64,000 nucleotides of DNA from Patescibacteria group bacterium (GTDB taxonomy: Bacteria > Patescibacteriota > Minisyncoccia > JACQLN01). The position numbers and the translations under genes were made by a program. The notes below the pieces were generated by a model, which was not told the origin of the DNA, ran no database searches, and worked only from the letters and a program-made list of their open reading frames with translations. Positions 1 through 28,279 of the stretch are shown here, in pieces; within the stretch, counting starts at the first letter, position 1; every line of letters begins with the position of its first letter. The stretch covers positions 29,652 to 93,651 of the forward strand of contig JBBTRR010000001.1 in the NCBI GenBank assembly GCA_038065095.1, read 5' to 3'.

Positions 1-1205
1 TTATTGGCGTAACAGGAACAAATGGTAAATCTACAGTCGTTCAATTACTTCACGAAATTTTTACAAATTTTGGTTTAAATGTAGCTTCAACTTCCACTAT
101 AAGATTCCGTATTAAAGATAAATACGAAGACAATAAGCTTAAAATGACTATGCCGGGGCGTTTTGCTTTGCAAGATTTTTTGCGAAAAGCGGCCAACGCC
201 GGTTGCCAATACGCAATTATAGAAGTTACTTCGGAGGGTTTAAAACAAAACCGCGCCGCGTTTATAAATTTTGATACTGCGGTTTTAACCAATGTTCGAC
301 CGGAACATATAGAAAGCCACGGCTCGTTCGAAAAATATAAAAAAGCTAAAGGCATACTTTTTGATTCTTTAAAGAAAAAAACTGTAGATAAATTTTTTGT
401 ACCTAAAAAGAATAAAAAGATAAGTGTAATAAATTTAGATGATCCCTCGGCTTATTATTACGCCAACTTTAGTGCAGATGAAAAAATAGGCTACGGTTTA
501 TTAAAAGAAAATATTCGCGCAGGTGTTAAAAATAATTTTATTCCAGAAAATATTAAGTTTTCGCCAAGTGGTGTGGAATTTAATTTAGAAGAAGAAAAAT
601 ACCAAAGCCCGCTTTTAGGTGACTTTAATTTATATAACACCCTGGCGGCTGTGGCGGTGGCTCGTGCTTACGAAATTCCACATAAACACATTAGAAAAGC
701 CATAGAAAGTTTTAAGGGTGCACTAGGCAGGTTAGAAATACTTCAGGAAAAGCCGTTTTTAGTGGTTATAGATTATGCTCATACACCCGATGCTTTAGAG
801 GCCGTGTACCGTGTGGCTAAATCTTTTTGGGTTAAAAACGGACATAAATTAATTGGTGTTTTAGGCGCGGCTGGCGGTGGGCGCGATAAATGGAAAAGAA
901 AAGAAATGGGTTCTATTGCCGAAAACTATTGCGACACTATATTTTTAACCGATGAAGACCCTTATACCGAAGACCCAGAAAAAATAGTAGCCGAAGTCGC
1001 AAAGGGAATTAAACATAAAGAATATAGAAAAATTATGGACAGGCGCTTAGCCATACGCGAAGCCTTAGAATCAGCTAAACATGACGATGTTGTTTTAATA
1101 ACAGGTAAAGGTGCCGAAAAAACCATGATGACCAAGTTTGGTGCTATGGATTGGGATGAAAAAGCTATAGTTTTAGAGGAGATAGAGAAGTTGGGTAAAA
1201 AATGA
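1..1205 (+). CDS. murE: Mur ligase (MurE-like UDP-N-acetylmuramoyl-tripeptide synthetase), 5' end cut by window edge
   Basis: Frame-3 ORF open from nt 3. P-loop IGVTGTNGKST at nt 3-35. DYAHTPDALEAV and Mur ligase C-terminal domain. TGA stop at 1203-1205. Confidence 0.8.
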   Translation, partial: IGVTGTNGKSTVVQLLHEIFTNFGLNVASTSTIRFRIKDKYEDNKLKMTMPGRFALQDFLRKAANAGCQYAIIEVTSEGLKQNRAAFINFDTAVLTNVRPEHIESHGSFEKYKKAKGILFDSLKKKTVDKFFVPKKNKKISVINLDDPSAYYYANFSADEKIGYGLLKENIRAGVKNNFIPENIKFSPSGVEFNLEEEKYQSPLLGDFNLYNTLAAVAVARAYEIPHKHIRKAIESFKGALGRLEILQEKPFLVVIDYAHTPDALEAVYRVAKSFWVKNGHKLIGVLGAAGGGRDKWKRKEMGSIAENYCDTIFLTDEDPYTEDPEKIVAEVAKGIKHKEYRKIMDRRLAIREALESAKHDDVVLITGKGAEKTMMTKFGAMDWDEKAIVLEEIEKLGKK

Positions 1206-20297: not shown

Positions 20298-20789
20298 CTA
20301 TTTATGTATAGTTATTGACCAGCCGGAAGGCGAGCTAGTCGGCGAACCATCGGTTTTATGCTGCTCGGTAACCATCTTTTCGAAAGCTATCAACTTGGTT
20401 CTAGCTAGATCTCTAAAGGCCTTTTCTCTACCTTTTAAAAATATTTCCAATCTAACTTGGTCACCTTTTTTAAGGAATTTATCGGCTAAACTGGCTTTTA
20501 CTTCGGTATCGTGAATAGAAGTTTTGAGCCCAATACGCACTGTTTTAAGCTCCTGCCTCTTATTTGAGGACTTCATCTTTTGTTCAGCCTTTCGCTGATG
20601 GTACTCAAATTTACCATAATCTATGATTTTGGCAACTGGCGGGGTGGCGGTAGGGTTAACCTCGGCTAAATCTAAACCTTTTTCCTTGGCTATTTTTAGG
20701 GCATCTTGCAAACTTAAAACACCCAAGCTTTTGCCGGTTTCATCTATAACTACTAATTTTTCCGAACGTATTTGGTTGTTTATTTTCAA
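20298..20789 (-). CDS. infC: translation initiation factor IF-3
   Basis: LVVIDETGKSLGVLSLQDALKIAKEKGLDLAEVNP. TTG initiation codon. Confidence 0.85.
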   Translation of the reverse strand: MKINNQIRSEKLVVIDETGKSLGVLSLQDALKIAKEKGLDLAEVNPTATPPVAKIIDYGKFEYHQRKAEQKMKSSNKRQELKTVRIGLKTSIHDTEVKASLADKFLKKGDQVRLEIFLKGREKAFRDLARTKLIAFEKMVTEQHKTDGSPTSSPSGWSITIHK

Positions 20790-20794
20790 ATTTT

Positions 20795-21058
20795 TTAGAT
20801 TTTGGTTGGTAAATTTTTTTTATATTTCTCAATTAAAAACTCCTTCTTTTTTCTAGACCATTTTTTAATTTGTATTTCTCTTTGCCTAGCTTCTTTAAGG
20901 TTTGAATATTCTTCTTTAAAAATAATTTTATAATGACCAGATTTTGTAAAAATAGCGCCAGATTTAGTGTTGTGAAATTTTAACCTTTTTTCCGGGTTTT
21001 CCGAAATACCAATATATAATTTATTGAAATTATTTTTAATTATATAAACAAAAATCAT
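20795..21058 (-). CDS. GIY-YIG nuclease-superfamily small protein (UPF0213-like)
   Basis: FVYIIKNNFNKLYIGISENPEKRLKFHN...EIQIKKWSRKKKE. The ORF-track extension to 21112 overlaps a tRNA-like remnant. Start taken at MIFVYII. Confidence 0.6.
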   Translation of the reverse strand: MIFVYIIKNNFNKLYIGISENPEKRLKFHNTKSGAIFTKSGHYKIIFKEEYSNLKEARQREIQIKKWSRKKKEFLIEKYKKNLPTKI

Positions 21059-21199
21059 AATTATGTCCCTCGACTTGTGGTGAAGAGGGTCGAACCACTT
21101 CGCTCGGGACACTCGACTCGTAGTGCATACCTACCAAGTTATTTGATTTGGTTGTGGCTTGCCACGAGTGAGTCCGAGCTTAAGTGAGGACGAGTCGAG

Positions 21200-21558
21200 T
21201 GGAGATGGCGGGAATTGAACCCGCGTGCAAAAAGTTTCTCGATTAAATTGCTACGAAGCCTAACCGTTCTTAATTTAAGTTTAACTCTTAAAGAACGGTG
21301 AAAAAAGTTAAACTTTTGGCGATTGTCTTAAGTCTAAAGTTCGCCTTCATTAGACAGCAGCCCGAAAGGTTGGCACCGCACACTGTCTTCTCGGGCGAAA
21401 ACAGGGCGATGGCTGATAGATTTTAAGCTACAGCGAACGCTGGTTTATTAGCGCTAAATAAGTTTGCACTTACTATTTGTAACCAGTTTTATGAGTTTGT
21501 GGTATACCTCAGCTTCGAATTCTTATCGATACGTTCCTTGACGATTCAAGTCATCCCC
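21200..21558 (-). ncRNA. ssrA: tmRNA (ssrA)
   Basis: 5' GGGGATGAC...TGAATCGTC. 3' tRNA-like GCGGGTTCAATTCCCGCCATCTCCA with acceptor pairing GGGGATG/CATCTCC. Internal tag frame GCA-AAC-... gives ANLFSANKPAFAVA-TAA (plus coordinates ~21424-21468). Immediately downstream of smpB. Confidence 0.75.
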
Positions 21559-21624: not shown

Positions 21625-22071
21625 CTAGTGGCTATCTTTGAGTTCTCTAGCAATATCTCTTTCGGCGATACGTTTTTTTAAAACTTCTCGCTTATCACCT
21701 TTACTTTTACCTTTGGCTAAACCAATTTCTAGTTTGATTTGACCGTGCTTATTATAAACTTTTAATGGCACAATAGTCAACCCTTTTTCTTTGGTTTTCC
21801 CTTGTAAATATTGAAGTTCTTTTTTGTTAAGCAAAAGTTTTCGTTTACGTTCTGGGTTGTATCCGGCAACCATGTTTTTAGGTTGATAGGGGGCGACCAT
21901 AGCTTTCACTAGCCAAGCTTCTTCGTCTTCCACAACTATATATGCGCCCTGCAAACTATAATGGTTATTCCTTATAGACTTAACTTCACCGCCAAGCAAA
22001 ACCAAACCCGCCTCGAATTTCTCTAGGATATCATAATTAAAAAATGCTTTTTTGTTGGTTTTGCTTTCCAC
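21625..22071 (-). CDS. smpB: SsrA-binding protein SmpB
   Basis: KKAFFNYDILEKFEAGLVLLGGEVKSIR... typical SmpB. Confidence 0.9.
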   Translation of the reverse strand: MESKTNKKAFFNYDILEKFEAGLVLLGGEVKSIRNNHYSLQGAYIVVEDEEAWLVKAMVAPYQPKNMVAGYNPERKRKLLLNKKELQYLQGKTKEKGLTIVPLKVYNKHGQIKLEIGLAKGKSKGDKREVLKKRIAERDIARELKDSH

Positions 22072-22174: not shown

Positions 22175-22657
22175 TTGGCTATGCTTATAAGAAAGAATGA
22201 ATACTTGGATTTACCTAGAAGTAAAGTAAGGTGTCTTAGTAATATCAGTCTGCCGAAAAGCACTAGTCTTTCGGTGTATCCTAAGTGGTTCATGAACAAG
22301 AATCATTTGGAGTTAAGTATTGTTCTTTTCAGAACAGATAAGAATGGTAATCTTAAGGAGCGGGAAGTTAGTCTTTTGGAGCTGTTTCCTTTGGAAAGTA
22401 TTCCCAGTGGCGGTCCTAATTTTTTGAGTTTTATTAAATCGGGAAGTCACCTCTGGGGTGCTATAGATATGAGTTTGCAGCAGCTTGTAACTAAAATCAC
22501 GCACGAGTTACAAATTTTCTTTGATTCCGAAGTTGCAACTCTTGGAGGTATAAATCCAAATGAAGTTGTGAAATTTTCCTTAGAAATTGGTCACGAAGTT
22601 TTAGAAGGTGAGAGTACTGTAAGGAGACTCAAGGGTTTTCTTCTCTTTAGGGAATAA
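22175..22657 (+). CDS. hypothetical protein
   Basis: 160-aa ORF. Upstream TTGACA ... TATAAT promoter-like elements around 22101-22130. A terminator follows. Confidence 0.35.
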   Translation: MAMLIRKNEYLDLPRSKVRCLSNISLPKSTSLSVYPKWFMNKNHLELSIVLFRTDKNGNLKEREVSLLELFPLESIPSGGPNFLSFIKSGSHLWGAIDMSLQQLVTKITHELQIFFDSEVATLGGINPNEVVKFSLEIGHEVLEGESTVRRLKGFLLFRE

Positions 22658-22752: not shown

Positions 22753-25700
22753 ATGAGACAAGTAAATCTACCTCAAGAAGAAGAAAAAGTTTTAAAACAT
22801 TGGCACGAAAACGAGATTTTCGAAAAAACTCTAGAAGCCACTAAAGATGGTAAGCCTTTTGTATTTTACGAGGGCCCGCCTACGGCCAATGGCAAACCAG
22901 GTATTCATCATATTGTGGCGAGGTCTTTTAAAGATATTATTTGCCGTTTTCAAACCATGAAAGGCCGGTACGTTTCGCGCCGCGCCGGTTGGGATACACA
23001 TGGCTTGCCGGTAGAAATTGAGGTAGAGAAAAAACTTGGTTTAAAAAATAAGCGCGATGTAGAAAAATACGGTATCGCCAAGTTTAATAAAGATTGCCAA
23101 ATATCGGTATGGCAATATAAAGATGAATGGGAAAAAATGACACGCCGAATGGGCTATTGGCTCGATTTAAAAAATCCATATATAACTTACGAACCTCAAT
23201 ACATAGAAAATGTTTGGAATATTTTAAAAAGAATTTACGATAAAAATCTTTTAGTTAAAGATTATAAAATCGTGCCGTTTTGTGTGCGTTGTGGTACGCC
23301 AATTTCTAGCCACGAAGTGGCGCAGGGTTACGAAACAGTTACAGATAGATCGGTAACCATAAAATTTAAAGTAAAAGGTTTAGAAAATACATATTTACTG
23401 GCGTGGACTACCACGCCGTGGACTTTACCAGGAAACGTTGCTTTGGCAGTTGGGCCAAAGGTTGTTTATGTAGAAGCCGAAGTTAACGGCGAAAAATATA
23501 TTTTGGCTCGCGATTTAGCCGAGAAAGTTTTTTCCTCGACTACGCTCGGAACAAGTGGCTCTGATTACAAAATAAATAAAGAATTAAAAGCGGGCGATCT
23601 TACCAAACTTTCTTACGAACCATTATTTGCAGTTAAAGAATTAGAAAGTGAAAATTCTTACAAAGTTTACGAAGCTGATTTTGTAACCACCGAAGATGGT
23701 ACGGGGATTGTGCATACCGCTGTAATGTATGGCGCCGACGATTTTGAACTTGGCACCAAATTAAATTTGCCAAAATTCCACACGGTTAACCGCGAAGGCG
23801 TTTTTGTAAAATCAGTCCCTGTTGTTGGTGGCCTTGCTATTGTTAGCGAAAATAAAAAAGACCCAATAACCGAAAAAACAATTTTGTTTTATTTAAAAAA
23901 ACAAAATTTTCTGTTTAGCGAAGCTAGCTACAAACACGAATATCCATTCTGTTGGCGTTGTAAATCGCCGTTACTATATTACGCCCAAGAAAGTTGGTTT
24001 ATAAAAATGTCGGCGTTACGGGGCGATTTAATTAAAAATAACGAAAAAGTTAATTGGGTGCCCGAACACATTAAAGAAGGTAGGTTTGGCGAATGGTTAC
24101 GCGAAGTTAAAGATTGGGCCATAAGCCGTGAAAGGTATTGGGGCACGCCACTGCCAATTTGGGAGTGCACCAAATGCGAACATAAAACCGTGATTGGTTC
24201 TTTGGAAGAATTAAATTCAAACAGATTTAGCGAAGGCACGGATTTTTTACTGGTTCGTCATGGTGAAGCTGAATCTAATGTGGGTCAATTTGTTAGCTGC
24301 TATCCAGAAAAAAAATTAAACCCACTTACCGAAAAAGGTAGAAAGCAAGTGGAAGAATCAGCTAAAAAAATAAAAAAAGAATTAGGTAAAAATAAAGTTG
24401 CAGCTATTTATGCTTCCGATGTTTTACGCGCTCGTGAGACCGCACAGATAATCGCGGATGAACTTAAAATAAAAGAAGTTGTCTTAGATGAAAGACTACG
24501 CGAAATAAACGTAGGCGATTTAAACGGCTTGCTTTCAAGTGAATACGTGGCCCATTTTAATTCGCTTAAAGATCGCTTTGTACGCCCAGCACCAGGCGGA
24601 GAATCGCTTGAGGATACAGTTAAAAGAATGAAGAATTTTGTGCATGATGTTTCTGAAAAATATGGAAACAAGAAGGTGATTGTGGTTAGTCACGGCGATC
24701 CCCTATTTTTCTTAAAAAATTCAGATAAAGTTTATGGCGAAGACGAACTTGAACTTCTATATCAAAAAGCTATAGATAAACCAGGAAAATATTTAGACCT
24801 GGCGGGGTTTACAGATTTTAAACTTAATAACTGGCCTTACGACGAAGAAGGGAATTTAAACCTTCATCGCCCTTATGCAGATAATGTGTTCCTCAAGTGT
24901 TCTATGTGTTCCTCAAAAATGGAACGTATAAAAGACTTAGCCGATGTTTGGTTTGATTCAGGTGCGATGCCATGGGCGTCATCGGAAAATCAAAAATCAA
25001 AAATCAAAAATCAAAATTTAGGGAAAGATAAGTTTCCAGCTGATTACATTTGTGAAGCGATAGATCAAACTCGTGGTTGGTTTTACACCTTAATGGCGGT
25101 TAGCACAGCTTTGGGCGAAGGCACGCCATATAAAAATGTAATTAGTTTAAACCACGTGTTAGATGAAAAAGGCGAGAAGATGTCGAAATCGAAAGGGAAT
25201 ATTGTAGACCCATGGATGGTGGGCGAGAAAGTTGGTTTCGACATGATGCGTTGGTATTTTTATACTGTAAACGCGCCGGGTGATAACAAACTTTTTAGTA
25301 TGCGCGATATAGAAAGCAAAAAGCGCAGGTTTGCCGATACTCTAATTAATTCATTCTTGTTTCTCGAAACATACTATGTTTCGAGTGGTGAGCGTAGTCG
25401 AACCATTACAGCTCGACCGGACATTCTAGATAAATGGATTTTAATGCGTTTAGAAAAATTAGAATTTGAAGTAAATAAATTTTTAGAAACTTACGATATA
25501 ACTTCCGCTTCGCGTGCTATAGAAGAATTTATAGATGAACTTTCTAATTGGTATATTCGCCGCAGTCGCCGCAAATTTCAAAAACAAAATATAGACGCCG
25601 AAAAATTATCGGCTCAAAATACTTTAACCGAAGTTTTAAAACGCACTGCTATTATTATGGCGCCATTTGCACCGTTTATATCGGAATGGCTATATATGAA

Positions 25701-26307
25701 TCTCAAAAACTTGAAACTTGGAACTTGTAACTTAGAATCAGTCCATCTCGAACACTGGCCGAAGTCATCCAAAATATCTAAATCGGAAATTACCAAAGCT
25801 ATGGAAAGAGCTCGTGAAATTGTGGCTCTAGGTTTAGCCGAGCGTGCTCAAGCGGGTTTACGCGTGCGCCAACCATTAAATGCTTTGTATGTTTCGCCAG
25901 CCGATTACAATTTAATTGGCGATGTTTTATACATTGTGGCGGAGGAACTAAATGTTAAAAAAGTTTTAAGCGACAGAAAAATAGAAAAAAATAGCGTTAG
26001 TTTGGATACTGTTCTTACAGCGGAACTCAAAGAAGAAGGTATGGTGCGTGAAATGATTCGCAACATTAACGAAATGAGAAAAGAAGCGAAGCTAACACCG
26101 GAAGATAAAATAATTTTGTATTACGAATTAAATCAAAACGCTAATTTTAAAGAATTATTAACGCGTTGGGAAAATATAATTAAACAAGAAACTCGTTCTA
26201 CCCAAATTCACTTCGGTATAACCGAAGCCGAAAGTTTTTTGGTCCACAAAGTTTGGAATTACGAAGGTTTTGAAATTGGAGTGGGGATTAAGACACACGA
26301 AGATTAA
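22753..26307 (+). CDS. ileS: isoleucyl-tRNA synthetase with inserted histidine-phosphatase (PGAM-family) domain
   Basis: PPTANGKPGIHHIVA (HIGH), CP1 editing region, WAISRERYWGTPLP, DQTRGWFYTL, KMSKSKGN. 1184 aa. Confidence 0.9.
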   Translation: MRQVNLPQEEEKVLKHWHENEIFEKTLEATKDGKPFVFYEGPPTANGKPGIHHIVARSFKDIICRFQTMKGRYVSRRAGWDTHGLPVEIEVEKKLGLKNKRDVEKYGIAKFNKDCQISVWQYKDEWEKMTRRMGYWLDLKNPYITYEPQYIENVWNILKRIYDKNLLVKDYKIVPFCVRCGTPISSHEVAQGYETVTDRSVTIKFKVKGLENTYLLAWTTTPWTLPGNVALAVGPKVVYVEAEVNGEKYILARDLAEKVFSSTTLGTSGSDYKINKELKAGDLTKLSYEPLFAVKELESENSYKVYEADFVTTEDGTGIVHTAVMYGADDFELGTKLNLPKFHTVNREGVFVKSVPVVGGLAIVSENKKDPITEKTILFYLKKQNFLFSEASYKHEYPFCWRCKSPLLYYAQESWFIKMSALRGDLIKNNEKVNWVPEHIKEGRFGEWLREVKDWAISRERYWGTPLPIWECTKCEHKTVIGSLEELNSNRFSEGTDFLLVRHGEAESNVGQFVSCYPEKKLNPLTEKGRKQVEESAKKIKKELGKNKVAAIYASDVLRARETAQIIADELKIKEVVLDERLREINVGDLNGLLSSEYVAHFNSLKDRFVRPAPGGESLEDTVKRMKNFVHDVSEKYGNKKVIVVSHGDPLFFLKNSDKVYGEDELELLYQKAIDKPGKYLDLAGFTDFKLNNWPYDEEGNLNLHRPYADNVFLKCSMCSSKMERIKDLADVWFDSGAMPWASSENQKSKIKNQNLGKDKFPADYICEAIDQTRGWFYTLMAVSTALGEGTPYKNVISLNHVLDEKGEKMSKSKGNIVDPWMVGEKVGFDMMRWYFYTVNAPGDNKLFSMRDIESKKRRFADTLINSFLFLETYYVSSGERSRTITARPDILDKWILMRLEKLEFEVNKFLETYDITSASRAIEEFIDELSNWYIRRSRRKFQKQNIDAEKLSAQNTLTEVLKRTAIIMAPFAPFISEWLYMNLKNLKLGTCNLESVHLEHWPKSSKISKSEITKAMERAREIVALGLAERAQAGLRVRQPLNALYVSPADYNLIGDVLYIVAEELNVKKVLSDRKIEKNSVSLDTVLTAELKEEGMVREMIRNINEMRKEAKLTPEDKIILYYELNQNANFKELLTRWENIIKQETRSTQIHFGITEAESFLVHKVWNYEGFEIGVGIKTHED
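24235..24730 (+). other. PGAM/histidine-phosphatase domain inserted within ileS
   Basis: LLVRHGEAESN (RHG), LTEKGRKQ, ASDVLRARETA, PGGESLEDTVKR, VVSHGDP. The domain sits between CTKCEH and KCSMCSS zinc-knuckle halves. Confidence 0.7.
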
Positions 26308-26765
26308 AAATAAAAAAACCTTAAAGTTCCTAAAATCCATTTGATAGCTCTTTTTAAGATATTTACATCCTCATCCATCATACCAATACTAGAATTACAT
26401 TGTCGGCAAATCCAGCCACGTATTTCCCCGTTTAGATGGTAGTGGTCTAAGACAACATCATTTTTAAACTGTCTGATTATTGTTCTATCACAGACAGGAC
26501 AGTGGAAAGATTCTCCGAGAGGTGGCATGGGATGGGTTTTTCCATACGCAATTCTCATCTTTATAGGAATTGGTTTTTTCCACTTGCGACAATTCCGACA
26601 TTCACCTCTCCTAGATATTTTTCCCGCAATACTTTTTTGGTTTTTTTCAAACTCAAAAATACTTTTTCTTTGCTGACATCGACGACAAATCTTGGTTTCA
26701 TTAAAACACAAATTACAGAACTCTTTGTGGGAGGCTTTATTACGATTACATTCAGTACAAATCAT
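26304..26765 (-). CDS. Endonuclease VII-family (HNH-like) nuclease with N-terminal Cys-rich Zn-finger repeats
   Basis: CPVCDRTIIRQFKNDVVLDHYHLNGEIRGWICRQCNSSIGMMDED matches the T4 EndoVII/Endonuclease_7 core. ATGA start/stop overlap with the upstream LexA-MTase gene. Confidence 0.6.
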   Translation of the reverse strand: MICTECNRNKASHKEFCNLCFNETKICRRCQQRKSIFEFEKNQKSIAGKISRRGECRNCRKWKKPIPIKMRIAYGKTHPMPPLGESFHCPVCDRTIIRQFKNDVVLDHYHLNGEIRGWICRQCNSSIGMMDEDVNILKRAIKWILGTLRFFYF

Positions 26766-28279
26766 ATATATTTAATTCTTTTACGAGCCACTTCACAGTA
26801 TTTATTAAATAACTCACTTCCTATATACTTTCTACCACTAAGAACAGCCATTTTGGCGGTGGTGCCACTACCCATAAATGGGTCGTATACAACATCACCT
26901 TCTTTACTCCAAGAGACTATATGGTCTTCTGCTAGTTTTTCAGGGAAGATAGCTGGGTGTTCGTATGCAAAATTATCGCTTGCCGAGTGTCCTTTTCCGA
27001 TATAATACTCCCAGACGTTTGTTCTCCTACCAAACTTTTCATAACCACTTCTAGCTCTCTTAGATAAAGTCCCATCATAAAGTCGTTTAGTACCACTATC
27101 ACCGGATCTTGCCTCTATATTTTCTCTATCTTTTATAAGGTTTATTGTTTTTGGTGTTCCTTTGCTAAATACAAACATGTATTCAAAGGTTTGCCAATAG
27201 GTTTTATTATTGCCAACCGCTCCGCGTGGTGGTTTTAAGTAAATCATTGTATCAAATAAATTAAAACCAATTTCTTTGAAATACAAGGCATGCTTAAGGG
27301 ATGTACCGCTTTCATTTCCTTTTTTTGTTTGGTCAGCAATAACCCACACAACGACCCCACCTTTTTTAGTAATGCGATATAACTCTTTAACTATCTGCTC
27401 AAATTCATTAAAGGTGTTACCATTATATTTTCGCATATCGTCATAAGGAGGAGAGGTTACTGTCATGTCAATAAAATTGTCTGGCATTCTAGACATTGTG
27501 TCTAAACAATTTTCATTGTAGATAGTATTCAGATTAACACCTTCTTTTTTTATTTCGAGCGAAGTGTTTTCCATTATTTCTGCCGTATCTCTATAAATTA
27601 CTTGGTTTTTAGGAAGTGCTTCGTATTTTACACCTCTTATTTTAAAAGGTGATGTATATGAAGAACTTTTAGTATAATTTTCGTTCTTTATAACATCAAT
27701 TAAAGTTCCTTGAATCGCAAAATCTTGATTTTTTTTAACTATTATTGGCTCCATATTTTTATTGGCGGGTTGTAATCGTATATGGTTTTTTTCTTTAAAA
27801 AAAGTTTTCAAAGTTGCTTCGCGGTTATCTATTAATGCGACTACCTTTTCTCCGTTTTTGGCTGTATTTTGTTCTTTAATTAAAACAATATCACCGCTAT
27901 TTATTTTTTCTTCAACCATACTGTTACCTCTTACCCTCAAGGCATAGATATTTCCAGAATTAGGCAATTTATTTTTCGGAACCATAATTGTTTCTTTTTC
28001 CTCTATGGCTTCAATTGGTTCACCAGCCGCGATTATGCCCAATAAGGGAATTTTTACAAAATTATCATATATAGGTATTTCTATATTTCTTTTTTGATGT
28101 TTTTCTTTGTTTATATATCCTTTGTTTGTAAGAGCTTCTAAGTGTTGGCTTATAGTGGCTGAAGAAGTGAGCTTAAAATGCTTCCCAATTTCCTTATGAG
28201 AAGGGGCGTAGCCTTTTTTATTACTATATTTAGTTACAAAATCAAGGATTTGTTTTTGTCTTGGAGTTAAGTTTCTCAT
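26762..28279 (-). CDS. LexA (wHTH + S24 peptidase) fused to beta-class DNA methyltransferase (SPPY ... FxGxG)
   Basis: N-terminus aligns with E. coli LexA along its length: LTPRQKQILDFV, GYAPSHKEIGKHF, cleavage site IAAGEP, Ser motif RGNSM, Lys motif ATLKTF, RLQPAN. C-terminus carries DMTVTSPPYDD and then VVYDPFMGSGTTAKM. Confidence 0.8.
   Translation of the reverse strand: MRNLTPRQKQILDFVTKYSNKKGYAPSHKEIGKHFKLTSSATISQHLEALTNKGYINKEKHQKRNIEIPIYDNFVKIPLLGIIAAGEPIEAIEEKETIMVPKNKLPNSGNIYALRVRGNSMVEEKINSGDIVLIKEQNTAKNGEKVVALIDNREATLKTFFKEKNHIRLQPANKNMEPIIVKKNQDFAIQGTLIDVIKNENYTKSSSYTSPFKIRGVKYEALPKNQVIYRDTAEIMENTSLEIKKEGVNLNTIYNENCLDTMSRMPDNFIDMTVTSPPYDDMRKYNGNTFNEFEQIVKELYRITKKGGVVVWVIADQTKKGNESGTSLKHALYFKEIGFNLFDTMIYLKPPRGAVGNNKTYWQTFEYMFVFSKGTPKTINLIKDRENIEARSGDSGTKRLYDGTLSKRARSGYEKFGRRTNVWEYYIGKGHSASDNFAYEHPAIFPEKLAEDHIVSWSKEGDVVYDPFMGSGTTAKMAVLSGRKYIGSELFNKYCEVARKRIKYI

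Follow-up and report, generated by a model that had tools for sequence, protein, structure and literature searches.

A predicted histidine phosphatase inserted into the CP3 zinc knuckle of a patescibacterial isoleucyl-tRNA synthetase, and its possible coupling to the host enzyme

The stretch of DNA analysed here, a window of 64,000 nucleotides from an ultra-small Patescibacteria group bacterium (contig JBBTRR010000001.1, positions 29,652 to 93,651), carries the gene of an isoleucyl-tRNA synthetase (IleRS) in which a predicted histidine phosphatase of about 200 residues, similar to PhoE and PspA, is inserted at the tip of the CP3 Cys4 zinc knuckle. The insertion is real, ancient and lineage-wide, and the phosphatase belongs to a Patescibacteria-specific subfamily that in related genomes is encoded by a separate gene, for a protein of about 190 residues, upstream of ileS; the domain is read as recruited from that neighbouring gene. 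The phosphatase, free-standing or inserted, and IleRS probably work together. The reading that we favour, with a confidence somewhat short of even, is that the domain is an active phosphomonoesterase coupled to IleRS, whatever its substrate. That the two are functionally coupled in some way, a claim wide enough to include the nucleotide or pyrophosphate and the sensor readings weighed below, has a somewhat better than even chance of being correct.

The host enzyme and the limits of the insert

The sole IleRS gene in the window, ileS, is one uninterrupted open reading frame of 1184 codons, without internal stop or frameshift, and its product reaches 869 bits against the NCBIfam model TIGR00392 (ileS; cut-off 621). 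The next-best NCBIfam matches are the MupA and MupB mupirocin-resistance models, which identifies the host as a type-2 enzyme (IleRS2), and its best relatives in the PDB are IleRS2 from Priestia (P.) megaterium (8c8w, E 9e-237) and the Thermus (T.) thermophilus enzyme (1ile). In the 1184-residue protein, Pfam places tRNA-synt_1 (PF00133) in two stretches that flank PF00300, followed by Anticodon_1 (PF08264) and DUF5915; together with the TIGR00392 score and the GIHH, WTTTPWT and KMSKS motifs, the two last-named Pfam families mark the protein as an IleRS2. The AlphaFold2 model of the full-length protein is confident (pLDDT 90.7, pTM 0.85), with most of the insert stretch above 90. As read from its sequence, the gene encodes a complete type-2 IleRS in which GXHH, the CP1 editing domain, KMSKS and the anticodon-binding domains are intact, and both aminoacylation and editing would be retained despite the insert, judging by these motifs and by the presence of this single ileS in the window.

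The features of the gene are given below by window coordinates; counts refer to 121 aligned orthologues.

22753-26307, forward strand: ileS, type-2 IleRS with embedded phosphatase (open reading frame list, TIGR00392, PDB relatives, AlphaFold2)
22900-22911, forward strand: G50-I51-H52-H53, the non-canonical GXHH form of the class I HIGH motif (sequence, conservation)
24166-24177, forward strand: first CxxC of the CP3 zinc knuckle, C472 and C475, aligned to WECEGCQH of PmIleRS2
24220-24849, forward strand: insert proper, residues 490-699, a complete histidine-phosphatase domain with short linkers (gap against 8c8w, motif spacing)
24247-24705, forward strand: PF00300 His_Phos_1 core, residues 499-651 (Pfam)
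24256-24264, forward strand: R502-H503-G504, the RHG motif with the phospho-acceptor histidine (R and H in 121 of 121, G in 118 of 121)
24427-24429, forward strand: R559, second arginine of the phosphate pocket (121 of 121)
24601-24603, forward strand: E617, general acid in the GGES motif (121 of 121)
24691-24693, forward strand: H647, second catalytic histidine in the SHG motif (121 of 121)
24898-24909, forward strand: second CxxC of the CP3 zinc knuckle, C716 and C719, aligned to TCPVCSG of PmIleRS2
24943-24963, forward strand: DVWFDSG motif, where the Rossmann fold resumes (D731, W733, D735, S736 and G737 invariant)
25177-25191, forward strand: KMSKS loop (K809, M810, S811 and K812 invariant)

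The GXHH motif, which in IleRS2 has been linked to mupirocin hyper-resistance (PMC10485003), is well kept in the family: among 114 aligned members, G50 and H52 are found in at least 90% and H53 in all. In T. thermophilus IleRS, the CP3 subdomain has a motif that binds Zn (PMC7191050), and the WxxSRxRYWG segment directly before it, the CP2-CP3 linker, lines part of the pocket for A76 of the tRNA CCA end (PMC7955072). In the query, an insert of about 205 residues lies between the two CxxC halves of this Cys4 knuckle, whose cysteines are invariant in the aligned family at positions 472, 716 and 719 and conserved in at least 90% at position 475. Alignment to 8c8w pairs query residue 489 with 476 and query residue 700 with 484, so that about 210 residues stand in place of about 7, and the spacing from WxxSRxRYW to DxWFDS is 267 residues, compared with 60-72 in relatives lacking the insert. 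In the 121 orthologues the insert measures 198-231 residues, with a median of 204. Its GC content matches the flanks and is uniform across the junctions. A free-standing protein of 188 residues, P0001, aligns to nucleotides 24244-24780 over 179 residues, and therefore a whole protein, not a fragment, has been inserted.

An initial annotation, made from the letters alone, had described an in-frame histidine-phosphatase insertion of the PGAM type, bearing all catalytic hallmarks within a single frame of 1184 codons and splitting a zinc knuckle between the WxISRxRYWG and DVWFDSG motifs. The reading frame, the PF00300 match, the invariance across 121 orthologues and, for the knuckle, the sequence and the 8c8w alignment agree with this description, and the motifs it relied on are all present in the frame (WAISRERYWGTPLP, CTKCEH ... 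KCSMCSS, LLVRHGEAESN, LTEKGRKQ, SDVLRARETA, GGESLEDTVKR, VVSHGDP and DVWFDSG/KMSKS). The position of the insert was likewise correct; its length of about 165 residues and its limits of 24235-24730 were too short, being now set at about 205 residues and 24220-24849; the older limits leave out the final helix and strand.

Catalytic residues, fold and family of the inserted domain

The match to PF00300 is strong in the full protein (E 2.2e-32; 112.8 bits, cut-off 21.7) and in the excised segment (E 1.3e-33), and His_Phos_1 accounts for the whole insert. A degenerate linker, which the initial annotation had named as a refuting outcome, is ruled out by the invariant catalytic residues. Besides the catalytic set, S555, G529 and R625 are invariant in the 121 orthologues, and G504, T526, T563 and G616 are conserved in at least 95%; the catalytic residues are also retained in members of only 32-38% identity that lack the zinc cysteines (L006, L013, L015 and L018). 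Mean identity across the family is 57% for the IleRS core and 40% for the insert. Modelled alone with AlphaFold2, the insert is again confident (pLDDT 91.4, pTM 0.89), and Foldseek groups it with metabolite phosphatases of about 200 residues, the closest structure being PspA (4ij6_A, TM 0.76, root-mean-square deviation 2.5), followed by Rv2419c and PhoE (TM 0.73-0.74; PhoE at 28-30% identity, with TM 0.73 and 30% for 1h2e), together with a histidine phosphatase of the riboflavin pathway (9mmh), the Entamoeba phosphoserine phosphatase (6m1x) and the E. coli CobC-type alpha-ribazole phosphatase (6e4b).

The profile, the RHG motif with the second arginine, second histidine and acidic donor, and the complete alpha/beta fold place the domain in branch 1 of the superfamily (PF00300). 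Among the named functions, a dPGM is rejected by score (dPGM_arch 99.9-102.8 bits against 225, pgm_1 44.9 against 81.7, GpmB 57-61 against 261), a PspA-type phosphoserine phosphatase reaches 75-79 bits against 350, although PspA is the closest solved structure, and CobC reaches 81 bits against 163. The dPGM enzymes of E. coli and yeast have a long substrate-binding segment between the catalytic glutamate and the second histidine (ERHYG...K...RR); judged by these motifs, the segment is missing from the insert, in which only 30 residues separate GGES617 from SH647, as in PspA and PhoE and unlike the classical mutases. With no equivalog threshold reached and a spacing of the PhoE/PspA kind, the domain is therefore filed as a superfamily member to which no substrate is assigned.

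Histidine phosphatases move a terminal phosphoryl group onto the histidine of the RHG motif. In the inserted domain, a phospho-histidine intermediate would form on H503; the phosphate would be gripped by R502, R559 and H647, and E617 would be the general acid. The conserved catalytic set together with the confident fold predicts a working phosphomonoesterase. This chemistry, which needs a terminal phosphate, makes poor candidates of two substrates suggested in the initial annotation, Ap4A and the aminoacyl-adenylate, since both contain internal phosphates only; a phosphorylated regulator, also suggested there, is possible.

Distribution of the architecture

A protein identical over its whole length (P0121) is found on 8 contigs in NCBI and the European Nucleotide Archive (ENA), the longest of 391 kb, and PF00300 is present in all of the 120 best IleRS homologues, which share 47-100% identity with the query, come from independent metagenomes and belong to the Patescibacteria/Parcubacteria lineages Minisyncoccia, Azam-, Sung-, Wildermuth-, Nealson-, Specht- and Pacebacteria. 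A scan with one genome per species added 18 insert-bearing loci (Paceibacteria, Yanofsky-, Wolfe- and Spechtbacteria) with 32-45% identity in the junction region; the remaining type-2 IleRS of that scan, about 60 from other phyla and archaea, have a short CP3 loop. The orthologue alignment proposed in the initial annotation therefore reveals an architecture that is widespread across the Candidate Phyla Radiation (CPR). In fragments of IleRS from Peregrinibacteria/Peribacteria (P0023, P0241 and P0270), two tandem His_Phos domains are found at CP3, with the catalytic residues kept wherever the fragments reach and the second domain taking the place of the distal CxxC. A word-indexed search with a 237-residue query covering the insert alone returned only short free-standing proteins and missed the 1184-residue P0121, its ranking being biased against long multidomain proteins, and is unusable for closest relatives.

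An artefact (a chimera, a hidden frameshift that splits two genes, or a spliced intein-like insertion) has a negligible probability: nothing in its favour was found beyond one related locus in a metagenome-assembled genome (MAG), L017, that is frameshifted inside the insert, probably by a sequencing or assembly error, and against it stand the continuous frame, the uniform GC content, the identical protein on 8 contigs in two archives, the architecture shared by more than 120 independent orthologues and by 17 further genome loci, and the lack of any intein, Hint or homing-endonuclease Pfam match, in the full protein or the excised segment, and of splice-junction residues.

A different insert of about 200 residues, without CxxC pairs, occurs at CP3 of a Bacteroidota IleRS (L019:3061-3780, Segetibacter sp. 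MAG, JANMMU010000071.1). It matches PF18809 (PBECR1, 'phage-Barnase-EndoU-ColicinE5/D-RelE like nuclease 1') with E 1.4e-7 and 32.4 bits against a cut-off of 27.6, and the occurrence of such an RNase-like domain within an IleRS could count as a separate finding.

Free-standing homologues and their link to ileS

Free-standing patescibacterial proteins of about 188-195 residues align to the insert over nearly their whole length, at 38-46% identity. Ten loci of such homologues, from three subclades, were sampled for genomic context, and in eight of them ileS lies downstream on the same strand, at the following distances from the His_Phos gene.

L081: gap of 18 nucleotides to ileS
L095: gap of 1 nucleotide to ileS
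L096: gap of 1 nucleotide to ileS
L088: gap of 461 nucleotides to ileS
L082-L084: separated from ileS by one HIT-family gene that overlaps the stop codon of the phosphatase
L085: a few small genes in between
L089: a few small genes in between
L092: a few small genes in between

In all four of the free-standing loci whose contig includes the CP3 region (L081, L082, L085 and L088), ileS lacks the insert, and each locus has exactly one copy of the phosphatase, inserted or free-standing, and never both. The free-standing genes precede ileS of the GXHH type (L082 and L085) and of the HYGH type (L081 and L088), and inserts are likewise found in the GXHH type, to which the query belongs, and in P0285, a fragment without the HIGH region whose KMSKRLQNYPDP region resembles the HYGH-type L081. 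The phosphatase and IleRS thus occur across the CPR in one of three arrangements: encoded side by side, joined through a single insert in Paceibacteria/Parcubacteria, or joined through two inserts in tandem in Peregrinibacteria. In three neighbour-joining trees, built without bootstrap, free-standing clades fall among inserted ones and insert-less IleRS among insert-bearing ones. The two states interleave; several transitions between them have probably occurred, and the trees leave undecided both their number and their direction, fusion or fission. A tandem His_Phos protein of Woesearchaeota (P0039) was considered as a parallel case and set aside as uninformative, its neighbourhood containing no aminoacyl-tRNA synthetase.

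The recurrent gene order is ArgRS, a small open reading frame, His_Phos and ileS. The small frame, conserved and of 51-66 codons, is found directly before the His_Phos gene in six contexts, at L082:5833-5988, L089:85-240, L090:4839-4997, L091:4841-4996, L092:4821-4994 and L085:5792-5992; its product in L082 has a hydrophobic helix and may be a membrane peptide. In one lineage only, a gene for a nucleotide hydrolase of the HIT family (HxHxHxx; L082:6558-7043, also in L083 and L084) overlaps the 3' end of His_Phos, before ileS.

Shift in surface charge

Inserted and free-standing domains differ markedly in charge, the median net charge and isoelectric point (pI) being +6 and 9.2 for the inserted and -6 and 5.5 for the free-standing ones. 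The largest shifts are located at residues 538-548, where the first long helix ends, and at residues 610-616, just before E617; in the 10-residue window 610-619, which holds E617, the mean charge is -3.0 in free-standing and -0.4 in inserted domains. Three free-standing proteins (P0002, P0005 and P0008), which the trees cluster with the inserted domains, are neutral to basic, with pI 7.0-10.0, and for the two of these whose genes were looked up, P0002 and P0008, the gene lies 1 nucleotide upstream of ileS. Such a gain, of about 12 positive charges, would be expected of a surface facing tRNA and not of a cytosolic metabolite phosphatase.

Functional interpretation

The coupling of phosphatase and synthetase is suggested by the Rosetta-stone pattern, by its reappearance in different IleRS subtypes and as a pair of tandem inserts, by the charge switch and by the fixed-length internal insertion. 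With regard to the last point, a gene situated 1-18 nucleotides upstream could fuse to the N-terminus by simple loss of its stop codon, yet an internal insertion of constant length has been fixed, which suggests that the position matters. The domain probably sits near the acceptor end of the tRNA, for which the charge switch and the CCA pocket at the CP2-CP3 linker speak; in the mechanism that we prefer, it would offer a third docking site for this flexible end, beside the synthetic and editing sites, and a terminal phosphate that blocks charging, for example a 3'-phosphate or 3'-pyrophosphate, would be removed there. Taken alone, docking of the acceptor end with removal of a terminal phosphate is a tentative proposal, to be given something between a fifth and a quarter of our confidence. 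The fuller version, in which the IleRS of a large part of the CPR would carry on CP3 a third catalytic site that, ahead of charging, strips from tRNA-Ile a blocking phosphate or pyrophosphate stemming from damage, from a toxin or from unfinished processing, with the upstream gene as its trans-acting form, is speculative and sits at the lower end of that range.

Several observations weigh against a coupling to tRNA charging. The insert evolves much faster than its host, P0122 being 93% identical to the query in the core and 60% in the insert, as fits a loosely constrained passenger; its nearest solved relatives are all small-metabolite enzymes, none of them RNA-directed; and the cut-offs of the named NCBIfam equivalogs all lie far above its scores. 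In L090 and L091 there is no ileS within 5 kb of the free-standing gene, and in some Patescibacteria (L021) ileS has neither an insert nor a nearby copy. The free-standing gene follows ArgRS and the frame of about 51 codons in six of the ten contexts, L090 and L091 included, and is thus linked to them as tightly as to ileS; moreover, synteny among housekeeping genes is well conserved in reduced genomes, which makes adjacency weaker evidence. LeuRS and MetRS in the window are without such an insert, and if tRNA-end repair were of general importance, its restriction to IleRS would be hard to explain. We know of no role of a phosphatase in tRNA charging.

The most serious rival, doubtful in our estimate but ahead of the others, is that the domain is a housekeeping enzyme of the PhoE/GpmB/PspA type acting on a small molecule, which was copied by local rearrangement from the adjacent gene into a permissive surface loop of ileS and is active there without any link to aminoacylation. 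The nearest structures and profiles, all metabolite phosphatases or mutases (PspA, Rv2419c, PhoE, CobC and archaeal dPGM), and the faster divergence of the insert are in agreement with this, as is the CP3 tip itself, which is short in most IleRS and accepts the unrelated insert of L019. Adjacency to ileS would provide a simple route of duplication and deletion, and there is a precedent in the CAAD domains of cyanobacteria, which class I synthetases took over from adjacent genes while their catalysis was hardly affected (PMC4893482). Nevertheless, the switch from acidic to basic by about 12 units is hard to reconcile with a metabolic enzyme, an internal insertion of fixed length has been adopted instead of a trivial N-terminal read-through fusion, the association is seen again in a second IleRS subtype and in the paired tandem insert, and among the class I enzymes seen here the insert is exclusive to IleRS. 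The presence of PBECR1, a different and RNA-nuclease-like domain, at the same site in a Bacteroidota IleRS supports either reading, a tRNA-directed domain or a passenger, its fold being again RNA-directed.

It is improbable that the domain is a hydrolase of nucleotides or by-products beside the synthetic site, which would take the terminal phosphate off pyrophosphate, ADP or ATP, AMP or a phosphorylated inhibitor mimicking the adenylate, and would so drive activation or detoxify an antibiotic. Its location is compatible with this, as the points where CP3 enters and leaves the fold, WG(T)PLP and DVWFDSG, lie beside the adenylate pocket (sequence; PMC7955072). Antibiotic hyper-resistance goes with the GXHH type, to which the host IleRS belongs, and the HIT-family gene that in L082-L084 lies upstream of ileS and overlaps the 3' end of free-standing His_Phos points in the same direction, but it is present in just one of the ten contexts. 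Some His_Phos domains, such as the C-terminal domain of mycobacterial MutT1, cleave nucleoside diphosphates, and the insert has a weak NCBIfam match to the MutT1 family. On the other hand, Ap4A and the aminoacyl-adenylate offer no terminal phosphate for such a reaction, removal of pyrophosphate would be useful to all 20 synthetases and not to IleRS alone, and a small-molecule substrate leaves the basic turn of the whole domain surface unexplained.

Less probable still is a non-catalytic function, in which the domain would be an additional tRNA-binding or dimerisation module, or a phospho-sensor tuning IleRS, with a pocket that binds its ligand or becomes phosphorylated without turnover. Eukaryotic synthetases often acquire basic appended domains that raise the affinity for tRNA, and this phosphatase subgroup is usually dimeric; the basic surface of the inserted domains and the tandem insert of Peregrinibacteria, which could mimic a dimer, would be in line with these properties. 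Nevertheless, neither E617, the general acid, nor either histidine is replaced in any of the 121 sequences, and both Peregrinibacteria copies keep these residues where they are covered. This is the signature of catalysis and not of binding alone, and the general acid in particular makes a purely structural or sensory role unlikely.

Neighbouring genes in the window

Upstream of ileS, the opposite strand carries a conserved block of genes.

20298-20789, reverse strand: IF3 (Pfam)
20795-21112, reverse strand: GIY-YIG open reading frame (Pfam)
21197-21558, reverse strand: tmRNA (Rfam RF00023, 103.8 bits)
21625-22071, reverse strand: SmpB (Pfam)

The tmRNA gene, between the GIY-YIG frame and smpB, was found by Rfam and went unreported by ARAGORN. 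In L081, L082, L085 and L088, the same IF3-SmpB block (minus strand, with L20-L35) lies ahead of the free-standing His_Phos gene and of an ileS without the insert. Between smpB and ileS, a frame of 160 codons without a Pfam family (22175-22657, forward strand), which may be spurious or a lineage-specific gene, holds the place that ArgRS, the small open reading frame and the free-standing His_Phos gene have in the relatives. Directly downstream of and convergent with ileS lies a gene for a 505-residue protein (26762-28279, reverse strand), an unusual fusion of a complete LexA (DNA-binding domain and S24 peptidase) with an N6/N4 DNA methyltransferase, and beside it is a frame of the Endonuclease VII family rich in CxxC motifs (26304-26765, reverse strand).

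Significance

Aminoacyl-tRNA synthetases often acquire accessory domains, and a synthetase with an inserted accessory domain is as such known; a third active site, if true, could be categorically new. Full-text searches and selected papers on IleRS structure, synthetase databases and domain insertions yielded no published description of the IleRS-histidine-phosphatase architecture, nor any earlier description of a second enzyme, catalytically intact by appearance, in the core of a bacterial synthetase and conserved over much of a major radiation. The databases give these proteins no name beyond 'class I tRNA ligase family protein' or 'isoleucyl-tRNA synthetase', and KEGG-style pipelines name relatives of the His_Phos domain gpmB, cobC or PhoE; with such generic or metabolic labels, metabolic reconstructions of the CPR may miscount both IleRS and 'phosphoglycerate mutase'. 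The three states (neighbours, single insert and double insert) form a Rosetta-stone signal that this subfamily and IleRS probably act together, which gives a handle on an unannotated and widespread protein family of the CPR and points to a step linked to the charging of tRNA-Ile. If either the tRNA-repair or the inhibitor-detoxifying reading were true, a new principle in the quality control of translation would emerge, and in the case of tRNA-end repair this would be the first synthetase with such a repair activity built in.

Comparison with known systems

Compared with PhoE from Geobacillus (1H2E/1EBB), PspA from Hydrogenobacter (4IJ5/4IJ6) and Rv2419c from M. tuberculosis, the insert shares the fold, the size of about 190-210 residues, the set of RHG, second arginine, GGES glutamate and SHG, and the short spacing from glutamate to histidine; these proteins, however, are independent and usually dimeric enzymes of small metabolites, whereas the insert is nested in a synthetase, has a basic surface and reaches no equivalog threshold. 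The host has the same domain order as the enzymes of T. thermophilus (1ILE) and P. megaterium (8C8W), with two Cys4 sites, 49-51% identity in the core and GXHH/HXGH variants, but the loop between the CxxC pairs, of about 35 residues in these two structures, holds in the query an extra enzyme of about 205 residues. Other combinations are more distant: in PRK07238 (bifunctional RNase H/acid phosphatase of the Rv2228c type), the second-best NCBIfam match of the insert with 88.9 bits and below the cut-off, a His_Phos domain is joined to a nucleic-acid enzyme, and NF040702 ('ileS_w_GNAT'), also below the cut-off here, describes an IleRS with another enzyme domain, the inserted domain being a different one.

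The CAAD domain, found in monomeric class I synthetases of cyanobacteria (ValRS, IleRS, LeuRS, GluRS and others), is likewise internal, lineage-restricted and recurrent, has a stand-alone homologue and, on the evidence available, derives from a neighbouring gene, but it is a non-catalytic membrane anchor on a face away from the tRNA (PMC4893482), whereas the query insert is of a catalytic type and lies inside the core, at CP3. The CP1 editing domain of IleRS, ValRS and LeuRS, a hydrolase nested in the Rossmann fold that takes the 3' end of the tRNA, is a conceptual precedent for an additional catalytic site; unlike the query domain, which is of the phosphoryl-transfer type, of unrelated fold and restricted to the CPR, CP1 is present in all of these enzymes and cleaves aminoacyl esters. 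By analogy, the inserted phosphatase may be compared most closely with CP1 in terms of function and with CAAD in terms of evolution.

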